UHGV virus genome: UHGV-0215671
DNA from: a virus
Length of the DNA: 13,254 bases
Reading direction: 5' to 3' (one strand)
Below the pieces are notes generated by a model. It worked only from the letters and a program-made list of their open reading frames with translations, searched no databases and had not been told where the DNA came from. This document shows positions 8,689-8,996 of this stretch, one piece after another. Each line of letters opens with the position of its first letter. The first letter of the stretch is position 1. A program made the translations under genes and the position numbers.

Positions 8689-8771
8689 TGGCATGGGACG
8701 GAGGAGTTGAACCACTTTGAAACGGTTTTGGAGGCCGTTGCTCATGCCTTAGAGTCTTAACATCGTCCCAC
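8689..8771 (-). tRNA. tRNA-like, anticodon CCA (Trp by anticodon), atypical 83 nt
   Basis: Acceptor GTGGGAC/GTCCCAT, T-loop TTCAACT, anticodon-like loop CTCCAAA on an ACGG/CCGT stem; about 8 extra nt between acceptor and D-stem. Confidence 0.45.
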
Positions 8772-8914
8772 ACTATAATTCGAAGCTTACCGTATTTTCG
8801 CAACACTGTAAAGCCCCTTCTCAGATTATTTACATGTTCTGGAAAACATGAGATACAGACCACCTCCTTACACGGAGACCCGATAAGGTCGTCTAAGTAA
8901 TCTGCTAACTAAAT

Positions 8915-8996
8915 TGGTCGAGGCGGCAGGACTCGAACCCGCATACTCCACTTACTCGGTTAACGGCGGTTTAGAAGACCGCTGAGATACGCCCCG
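8915..8996 (-). tRNA. tRNA-like, 82 nt, anticodon-type hairpin with UCU (Arg by anticodon), no clear D-arm
   Basis: Acceptor CGGGGCG/CGCCTCG (C1-G72), T-arm GCGGG-TTCGAGT-CCTGC, perfect hairpin GCGGT-CTTCTAA-ACCGC placed 12 nt too far 5', 23-nt region before the T-arm. Confidence 0.4.

Follow-up and report, generated by a model that had tools for sequence, protein, structure and literature searches.

The window analyzed here is the whole 13,254-nucleotide (nt) stretch of the virus genome UHGV-0215671, and it corresponds to the tRNA cluster of a Felix O1-like phage (Felixounavirus, Ounavirinae); its region 8560–9340 is 98–99.9% identical to many Escherichia and Salmonella Felixounavirus genomes. 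ARAGORN identified 25 tRNAs between positions 5657 and 10690, all on the minus strand, and among these canonical tRNAs ACG is the sole Arg anticodon. Between tRNA-Ile (9334–9409) and tRNA-Ser (8586–8675), on the same strand, lie two further tRNA-like elements, designated E2 (8915–8996) and E1 (8689–8771). A first-pass annotation had left it open whether these are functional oddities, pseudogenes or tRNA mimics, and comparative evidence favored the first of these options for both elements. We consider it likely that E2, a non-canonical tRNA-Arg(UCU), and E1, a non-canonical tRNA-Trp(CCA), are working tRNA genes with non-standard cores that are transcribed together with the neighboring tRNAs.

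The E2 gene is 82 nt long, including an encoded ACCA, and scored 99.4 bits on a covariance model of its family (model R1). Read from 8996 to 8915, it begins with the acceptor 5′ strand (nt 1–7, CGGGGCG, 8990–8996), which pairs with CGCCUCG at 8919–8925, one of the pairs being G3·U70; this 3′ strand is followed by discriminator A73 and an encoded CCA (together 8915–8925, assigned from sequence and covariation). A connector, U8-A9-U10 (8987–8989), leads to a stem of 3 base pairs (bp) designated P2, whose 5′ strand (nt 11–13, CUC, 8984–8986) pairs with GAG at nt 40–42 (8955–8957), as indicated by covariation and mutual information. Enclosed by P2, after a single A, is the anticodon arm (nt 15–31, 8966–8982), which has the stem GCGGU/ACCGC and the loop CUUCUAA, with the anticodon UCU at 8973–8975. 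It is followed by an 8-nt bulge, CGUUAACC (nt 32–39, 8958–8965), which is placed like a variable region and in which C32, U34, A36 and A37 are invariant in the subfamily; across the wider E2 family the bulge is 3–8 nt long. Downstream of P2 come a D-loop analog, UAAGUGGAGUAU (nt 43–54, 8943–8954), mapped as such by its order and conservation, and the T arm GCGGG-UUCGAGU-CCUGC (8926–8942), which was defined by covariation and by alignment to the Rfam tRNA model.

Compared with the standard cloverleaf, E2 has the 7-bp acceptor, the unpaired discriminator and CCA, and the 5-bp T stem with a 7-nt loop, and members of its family have the usual anticodon arm (5-bp stem, 7-nt loop, U33 and a purine at position 37). 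However, there is no D hairpin two nt past the acceptor: only 7 nt separate the acceptor from the anticodon stem, and 23 nt precede the T stem. The minus-strand sequence agrees with the initial description of a perfect acceptor, a T arm, a UCU anticodon hairpin and a 23-nt pre-T region. The accompanying statement that E2 lacks a D arm was correct for the interval between acceptor and anticodon arm, where no D hairpin is found, but it overlooked the covarying 3-bp D-stem analog that encloses the anticodon arm; the 23-nt region, right in length, can be refined in that the D-loop analog sits inside it.

Neither E2 nor E1 was called by ARAGORN in the window under default settings, with -ps90 or with introns allowed, and the folds that it gave for them with -ps80 were nonsensical; the metazoan-mitochondrial mode was the sole mode to call E1, as Trp(cca). 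The Rfam tRNA model (RF00005), whose gathering score is 29, matched E2 at 31.7 bits; its alignment covered the acceptor, the T arm and the UCU anticodon hairpin, and the score was reached only through deletion of the D arm and a 20-nt insertion in the variable region. For E1, the best Rfam match was tRNA-Sec (RF01852) at 21.3 bits, below the gathering score of 47, and the RF00005 threshold was not reached. It had been suggested that automated folding might recover standard cloverleafs after small boundary shifts; ARAGORN produced none for either element, and the Rfam alignment likewise needed the D-arm deletion. Single-sequence folding energies were about the same as those of shuffled sequences for both elements (z = −0.56 and 0.04) and are therefore uninformative, so that the case for E2 and E1 beyond chance rests on comparative data.

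BLAST searches against phage genomes detected E2 alone, at 83–90% identity, in unrelated phages: the jumbo phages 121Q, PBECO4 and 7t3, the T5-like Klebsiella phages Roth39 and Spivey, Vequintavirinae, Erwinia phage Ep030 and a Streptomyces phage. In public records these relatives are labeled tRNA-TERM, tRNA-Leu(taa) or tRNA-OTHER, or are unannotated. A motif scan of IMG/VR, in which the anticodon was not part of the pattern, yielded 73 E2-subfamily loci, which were reduced to 52 distinct sequences of 81–82 nt with a nearly gap-free alignment; these came from Felixounavirus, Asteriusvirus, T5-like, Vequintavirinae, Kolesnikvirus and Streptomyces phages. On this alignment we tested a four-helix model (acceptor 1–7/72–78, P2 11–13/40–42, anticodon stem 15–19/27–31 and T stem 55–59/67–71). 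Paired combinations occupied 98.2% of the cells, compared with 68% in shuffles and 34–47% when the partners were slid, and compensatory changes were found at 16 of the 20 pairs (all seven in the acceptor and all five in the anticodon stem); none of 500 shuffles reached the observed values. P2 was paired in all 52 sequences, with pair 12–41 being UA in 32, GC in 13 and AU in 7, and pair 13–40 being CG in 44, GC in 5 and UA in 3. Mutual information calculated without an input structure recovered the same helices, P2 included, and added a covarying position formed by nt 14 and nt 39 (A·C in 35 sequences and C·A in 12). Even within Felixounavirus, the anticodon stem of E2 showed a compensated double change, from GCGGU/ACCGC to GCUGU/ACAGC.

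Three other assignments were considered and rejected. Nt 11–13 could also pair with a downstream GAG at nt 50–52; however, nt 12 and 13 vary and nt 50–52 are constant, and covariation favors nt 40–42. The published anticodons of two E2 homologs, UUA ("TERM", phage 7t3) and UAA ("Leu", phage 121Q), are not in the supported hairpin loop; the UUA and UAA trinucleotides fall in the bulge and in the J2 segment.

The covariance model built from the 52-sequence alignment separated family members (67–101 bits) from canonical tRNAs (at most 36 bits), and it also exposed intermediate matches that had the E2 layout and other Arg anticodons. A looser pattern scan, again with the anticodon left out of the pattern, gave at least 120 loci, and screening of these with the covariance model revealed at least 79 further, divergent E2-family members, in which 96.6% of the cells were paired and 19 of the 20 pairs were compensated. 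The E2-family set used below, divergent relatives among the matches listed included, comprised 124 well-aligned members. The connector began with U8-A9 in all 124, an invariance that is partly imposed, as TATC was the anchor that set the 5′ end of the motif-scan matches; the segment after P2 always began with U-A. The discriminator was A or G in 99 of the 124 members, and CCA was encoded in 84. ARAGORN recognized only 3 of 77 E2-family members. The alignments, including that of E1 described below, had 96.6–99.5% of their cells paired and 8–19 compensated pairs each; they showed neither the uncompensated broken pairs nor the patchy conservation of pseudogenes, and the comparison of sequences argues that the E2 family is a structured RNA under selection.

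Throughout the family the parts follow the order acceptor, U8-A9-N, P2 5′ strand, one nt, anticodon arm, 3–8-nt bulge, P2 3′ strand, UAA(N)(N)GGA...U and T stem. A D-loop-like segment, UAANUGGA, comes after the 3-bp stem (nt 11–13/40–42), and the strand that leaves P2 at its anticodon-distal end continues as a sequence that nearly matches the D loop of the canonical phage tRNA-Arg (UAAUUGGA in E2 versus AAUUGGAUA in phage Shy). Because of this near match we read P2 as a D-stem analog, and hence the D arm of E2 as permuted. We infer that the P2 3′ strand corresponds to the 5′ strand of the standard D stem, with A44 equivalent to A14, A45 to R15, G48-G49 to G18-G19, A50 to A20 and U54 to Y48. 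The R15·Y48 assignment predicts covariation of two positions, nt 45 and the last nt before the T stem, and this prediction holds: the combination was A/U in 121 and G/C in 3 of the 124 members and was never mixed. Among matches in which these positions were unforced by the search patterns, A/U occurred 12 times and G/C 3 times, the G/C cases lying on two contigs and representing approximately two independent events. Together, P2, the 14·39 position and the anticodon stem make up nine layers, versus ten in the standard D/anticodon stack.

The anticodons of the 124 members were UCU (84), ACG (21), CCU (9), UCG (7), CCG (1), GCG (1) and GAU (1), that is, Arg anticodons in 123 members, and U33 and A37 were present in all of them. 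In bacteria, the Arg identity set consists of A20, C35, U/G36 and A/G73 (PMC9976931). E2 itself has C35, U36 and A73, and in its D-loop analog the GG is immediately followed by A; an A in this place was found in 123 of the 124 members and would be expected to occupy the A20 position in three dimensions. The sole member with a non-Arg anticodon (GAU, Ile; L155:2425–2504) is also the sole member with U instead of this A.

We also compared the anticodons of the permuted tRNAs with those of canonical Arg tRNAs in the same loci, the latter being present in 21 of 33 tRNA-rich loci. For 77 members there was a single match between a permuted and a canonical Arg tRNA of the same locus. When the permuted anticodon lists were shuffled among 26 loci, 9.4 matches were obtained on average and none of 20,000 trials gave as few as 1, although the P value is optimistic because the loci are partial genomes and are not phylogenetically independent. 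For example, a permuted UCG accompanied canonical CCU, CCG, GCG and UCU in one locus (L170), and a permuted ACG accompanied canonical CCG, UCU and CCU in another (L208). In the Vequintavirus-like phage VivaForever, E2 is the only Arg tRNA of a set of 15 tRNAs. In Roth39, a canonical Arg(ACG) was found together with E2, the same pair as in the window.

More than one permuted Arg tRNA (two or three, differing in anticodon) was found on some phage contigs (L126/L130, L191, L054, L088 and L064); the anticodons were UCU, GCG and UCG in L126, CCU, CCG and UCU in L191, and UCG and UCU in L054. One of the L126 copies had an additional hairpin in the D-loop-like segment. Roth39 also contained a second gene labeled tRNA-OTHER (L135:10620–10704, 85 nt), which falls outside the E2 family and has normal-looking D and T arms and a long, irregular anticodon region.

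The sister phages Shy, Michonne, Sf13, CHB7 and Wc4 carry a canonical tRNA-Arg(UCU) in the region of the tRNA cluster where E2 lies. When the window was aligned with Shy, Michonne and Sf13, the flanks proved near-identical up to the gene ends, with a tRNA-Arg(UCU) at the exact position of E2, which is a clean cassette exchange between the two types of gene. In the lineage of the window's phage, E2 took the slot that a canonical tRNA-Arg(UCU) cassette had occupied. Clustering of the open reading frames (ORFs) within 3 kb of family members in 56 lineages revealed no dedicated partner protein beside E2; the only recurrent neighbors were HNH homing endonucleases, in no more than 7 of the 56 lineages, and these enzymes may explain both the horizontal spread and the cassette exchange. 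We further scanned one genome per species for 185,579 bacterial and archaeal species, using the E2-subfamily pattern only, and found 4 true members, all of which were on contigs of metagenome-assembled genomes 6–41 kb in length. So far, the E2 family appears to be almost restricted to phages.

The E1 gene is 83 nt long, including an encoded CCA, and is read from 8771 to 8689. Its acceptor 5′ strand, GUGGGACG (nt 1–8, 8764–8771), pairs with 8693–8700, giving 8 bp if G8-C72 is counted, and is followed by a linker, AUGUUAAGA (nt 9–17, 8755–8763), which is 2 nt in a standard tRNA and is invariant here from Felixounavirus to Pectobacterium phage Wc4. Next come a D arm, CUC-UAAGGCAU-GAG (8741–8754), a single C, the anticodon arm AACGG/CCUCCAAAA/CCGUU (8721–8739, with CCA at 8729–8731), the stretch UCAAA, and a T arm, GUGG-UUCAACU-CCUC (8701–8715). 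The acceptor 3′ strand, CGUCCCAU, discriminator G73 and CCA (8689–8700) were assigned by sequence comparison. Measured against the standard cloverleaf, E1 has the acceptor and an anticodon arm of 5 bp plus a C·A closing position around CUCCAAA, and its T stem has 4 bp plus A·C, unless the 8/4 arrangement applies. It does have a D hairpin, with 9–10 nt before it instead of 2. The sequence bears out the earlier description of a good acceptor, a CCA loop and about 8 extra nt between acceptor and D stem (approximately 7 by our count). A T arm, which had also been called good, is present as well, but it is weaker than this implied, as the window copy has a U·U mismatch that is absent from most relatives.

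On 11 distinct E1 sequences from four Ounavirinae lineages we tested a model consisting of 8 bp in the acceptor, 3 bp in the D stem, 5 bp in the anticodon stem and 4 bp in the T stem; 99.5% of the cells were paired and 8 pairs were compensated, compared with zero compensated pairs in slid controls. The D stem changed from CUC/GAG to CAC/GUG (its middle pair being U-A in 6 sequences and A-U in 5), the T stem from GGGG/CCUC to UGGG/CCUA, and the anticodon stem, with 4 of its 5 pairs compensated, from AACGG/CCGUU to GUAAG/CUUAC and GUAGG/CCUAC. G8-C72 was pairable in all 11 sequences, whereas the alternative fifth T-stem pair was always A·C, and E1 probably has an 8-bp acceptor and a 4-bp T stem. 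In addition, AUG of the linker and CAU of the D loop (UGU in Wc4) might pair (nt 9–11/26–28); all 11 sequences are compatible with this pairing, with only one-sided changes, and the result could be a small pseudoknot that would stack on the D stem. The U·U of the window copy arises from a G-to-U change (8712–8715 with 8701–8704) that is shared, among IMG/VR loci, only by L110 and L115; all others have G·U.

E1 was restricted to Ounavirinae, namely Felixounavirus, Mooglevirus, Suspvirus and Pectobacterium phage Wc4. Two IMG/VR pattern scans for relatives outside this group returned only Ounavirinae and three chance matches, and BLAST with E1 outside Ounavirinae showed only weak similarity to a canonical tRNA-Trp. 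Trp identity in bacteria involves the CCA anticodon, G73, A1-U72, G2-C71 to G5-C68 and A9 (PMC9976931). E1 carries CCA, G73, A9, G3-C70, G4-C69 and G5-C68; position 1–72 is A-U in most copies and G1·U72 in the window, and pair 2–71 is U-A rather than G-C. The first-pass annotation had pointed out that the set would have no Trp decoder if E1 were non-functional. This is the case: the 25 canonical tRNAs cover all amino acids but Trp, so that E1 would complete the set. Like E2, E1 is under structural selection, and we regard it as a putative Ounavirinae-specific tRNA-Trp that retains the standard arm order and has an inserted 9-nt linker.

A promoter-like site of sigma-70 type on the minus strand (TTGACA-17-TATAGT, 9290–9318), identified by consensus match only (11 of 12 positions), lies just downstream of tRNA-Ile and approximately 290 nt upstream of E2, and therefore also upstream of E1 and tRNA-Ser. 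No terminator-like sites were found between 8300 and 9700. This arrangement is consistent with cotranscription of E2, E1 and the downstream tRNAs from the promoter-like site.

If E2 is a working tRNA, its anticodon arm would be stacked on the D-stem analog, and the D-loop-like segment would supply the U8·A14, R15·Y48 and G18G19–T loop contacts together with the A20 that is read by ArgRS. The L shape would then be retained, and with it the charging with Arg and the reading of AGA and AGG. The four helices, the Arg-only anticodons, their complementarity to the canonical Arg anticodons and the cassette exchange are observed; the identity elements, the complementary anticodon sets and the exchange speak indirectly for the processing, charging and decoding that this model predicts.

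Several observations weigh against this reading, in addition to the optimistic P value of the complementarity test. The three-dimensional placement of E2 on the standard core is one that we infer, and the U8·A14 and G18G19 analogs are invariant and hence give no covariation signal; moreover, GTAA, GGA and the final AT of the J2 segment were partly imposed by the search patterns. Two E2-subfamily loci (L050 and L083) also carry a canonical tRNA-Arg(UCU). The acceptor of the window E2 has A73, G2-C71, G3·U70 and G4-C69, which is the full bacterial Ala acceptor set (PMC9976931, Table 1), and because of this its charging identity is not certain. Seven lineages of the family (L032, L021, L011, L018, L050, L063 and L038) have no CCA, with GCTA, GCAA, GCAT or GCTC in place of GCCA, and they show 12–15 extra bp between leader and trailer whose sequence is different in each, even though the neighboring canonical tRNAs encode CCA; tRNAs do not usually behave in this way. 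For E1, the evidence comes from few lineages and no tool scored it as a tRNA above threshold; its 31–39 position is C·A in the window and C·A or C·C in all relatives, and is never paired; and the only unpaired cell of the E1 matrix is the window's own T-stem U·U, which indicates a weakened T stem. The CCA-less members of the E2 family were mostly found in loci with few tRNAs; excision of these RNAs from mRNA by a double-strand-specific nuclease is possible, and the long-stem lineages may have a different maturation route or a different function.

A broader proposal can be made for the E2 family, one that we put forward tentatively and think rather unlikely to be right in all its parts. The family would be a distinct structural class of working tRNA in which the parts of the D arm are permuted and the standard tertiary core is rebuilt. 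Phages would keep and exchange it because the rewired body escapes host nucleases or modifying toxins aimed at tRNA-Arg, while ArgRS, EF-Tu and the ribosome accept it; in the sub-clade of the window, G3·U70 may add charging with Ala.

Among the alternatives to working tRNAs, the one that survives best, improbable as we judge it to be, is that the two elements are non-decoding mimics of tRNA-Arg and tRNA-Trp. They would serve as decoys or inhibitors of a host factor whose recognition of tRNA depends on the anticodon arm together with the acceptor/T domain, such as an anticodon nuclease or some other defense directed at tRNAs, or as tRNA-like processing signals in a polycistronic transcript. Such a role would fit the non-standard cores, that of E2 being kept across many phage families, as well as the CCA-less lineages with their long leader–trailer helices beside CCA-encoding tRNAs and the L050 member that lies directly beside a canonical tRNA-Arg(UCU); tRNA cleavage by host systems and phage tRNAs that evade it have both been documented (PMC10264068; PMC12916289). 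However, a decoy has no need to avoid the anticodons of co-resident canonical Arg tRNAs, and the avoidance is strong, nor would it need the analogs of A20 and R15·Y48 or an A/G discriminator. Precise replacement of a canonical gene at its own site would likewise be unexpected for a mimic, as would the presence of E2 as the sole Arg tRNA in the 15-tRNA set of VivaForever.

It is less probable still that E2 in the sub-clade of the window is charged by AlaRS through G3·U70, alone or besides Arg, and acts by inserting Ala at AGA and AGG or in a tmRNA-like (transfer-messenger RNA-like) manner. The acceptor set noted above is what suggests it: G3·U70 and G4-C69 are kept in the 7t3, Roth39, 121Q and BIS47 copies, in which pairs 1–72 and 2–71 change with compensation, and E2 gave a weak match to the Rfam tmRNA model (RF00023; 22.1 bits, E = 6e-6). 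Yet G3·U70 occurs in only 7 of 60 E2-subfamily sequences and G·U is equally common at 1–72 and 2–71, so that it may be drift, and the sister clades have G3-C70. All Arg determinants have counterparts in E2, and G20, the Ala determinant in the core of bacterial tRNAs (PMC9976931), is absent, the equivalent nucleotide being A. The tmRNA score falls well short of the gathering score (47), no tag ORF is present, and an ARAGORN tmRNA search of the window found none.

That E2 and E1 are decaying pseudogenes, remnants of tRNA-Arg and tRNA-Trp damaged by indels, as the lack of ARAGORN calls, the unremarkable folding energies, the U·U in the T stem of the window E1 and the listing of 3 of 23 tRNAs as possible pseudo-tRNAs in the genome paper of the Felix O1-like phage UAB_Phi87 (PMC4837284) might suggest, is hardly credible given pairing of 96–99% that persists despite dozens of compensating double changes in phage families unrelated to one another, anticodons held within one amino acid and a "defect" that is invariant from Felixounavirus to Pectobacterium phage Wc4.

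Among known RNAs, the closest counterpart of E2 is found in the sister phages: the canonical tRNA-Arg(UCU) of Shy, Michonne and Sf13 shares with E2 the 7-bp acceptor, the 5-bp T arm with a TΨC-type loop, the anticodon loop CUUCUAA, A/G73, CCA, the genomic slot and the role in the tRNA set. It differs in being 76–77 nt rather than 82 nt long and in having its D arm between acceptor and anticodon arm, whereas E2 has a D-stem analog around the anticodon arm and a D-loop analog after it. Metazoan mitochondria contain D-armless tRNAs, such as mitochondrial tRNA-Ser(AGY), which are approximately 55–65 nt long, no longer make the D-loop/T-loop contacts and function with mitochondrial factors that are adapted. 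As in E2, the acceptor is not separated from the anticodon stem by a hairpin, and the anticodon helix is extended. In contrast, E2 is of full length, has a D-stem analog, a GG-containing D-loop analog and a standard T loop, and would have to work with ordinary bacterial factors; the unstructured connector, the truncation and the lost contacts of the mitochondrial type are not seen in it. In the red alga Cyanidioschyzon merolae, the 3′ half of permuted tRNA genes precedes the 5′ half, and a circular intermediate gives a standard mature tRNA. The order of segments along the gene is non-standard there as in E2, but the acceptor ends of E2 are at the ends of the gene, so that the mature RNA itself would have rewired connectivity.

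The tRNA-like domain of tmRNA resembles E2 in its acceptor with G3·U70, its T arm and a D-loop analog without a standard D hairpin; E2, which has 82 nt and a true anticodon arm, lacks the mRNA-like part, the pseudoknots and the tag ORF that characterize tmRNA. Bacterial tRNA-Sec shares the 8-bp acceptor and the extended anticodon stem with E1, but E1 has the anticodon CCA rather than UCA and neither a long variable arm nor a 6-bp D stem. Allo-tRNAs and other 8/4 or 9/3 tRNAs, which occur in bacteria and phages, form non-canonical cloverleaves and are missed or mislabeled by tRNA finders, and some of them have AGA/AGG anticodons; allo-tRNAs have the standard arm order, a long variable arm, serine identity and very diverse anticodons (Mukai et al., PMC5389517). 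E1 may share their geometry of an 8-bp acceptor and a 4-bp T stem. However, E2 has a 7/5 geometry, a permuted core and Arg-only anticodons, and E1 has a variable region of 4–5 nt, a 9-nt linker and a Trp-like anticodon and discriminator, which places both outside this class. Allo-tRNAs and mitochondrial D-armless tRNAs come closest among described oddities, and neither is known to have this connectivity. Full-text literature searches (phage atypical, D-armless or permuted tRNAs, tRNA-Arg, Felix O1) found no published description of either family; most subscription journals were outside their coverage, and a prior description is possible.

Additional features were observed in and around the cluster. 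On the minus strand between E2 and E1 (8826–8870), a strong Shine–Dalgarno sequence (AAGGAGGUG) precedes a 7-codon mini-ORF, AUG UUU UCC AGA ACA UGU AAA UAA, which has one AGA codon and a start codon within a 6-bp hairpin; the Shine–Dalgarno sequence is not kept in Mooglevirus. In Felix O1 (NC_005282) and several relatives, an HNH endonuclease gene is inserted at the equivalent of window positions 8772–8914 and splits the match in two. The Rfam tRNA model also matched 9775–9825 on the minus strand, weakly and over part of its length (22 bits, model positions 7–64); this stretch, inside a 459-nt gap between tRNA-Lys and tRNA-Asp, may be a tRNA fragment.

Standard annotation overlooks E2-family genes or mislabels them as tRNA-TERM, tRNA-Leu or tRNA-OTHER, or leaves them blank. 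As a result, phage tRNA inventories would be wrongly left without AGA/AGG decoders and, in Felix O1-like phages, without a Trp decoder, and codon-usage analyses built on such inventories would inherit the error. Should these RNAs prove to be aminoacylated and used, the RNase P, ArgRS, EF-Tu and ribosomes of bacteria would accept a tRNA whose core strands are reordered. This would relax the supposedly fixed cloverleaf in non-organellar systems and offer a natural test of topology versus geometry in tRNA architecture, and the E2 scaffold may also serve the engineering of orthogonal tRNAs. The restriction of the family to arginine and, so far, to phages would point either to a single ancient invention locked by identity rules or to a specific pressure, such as a host defense that targets tRNA.

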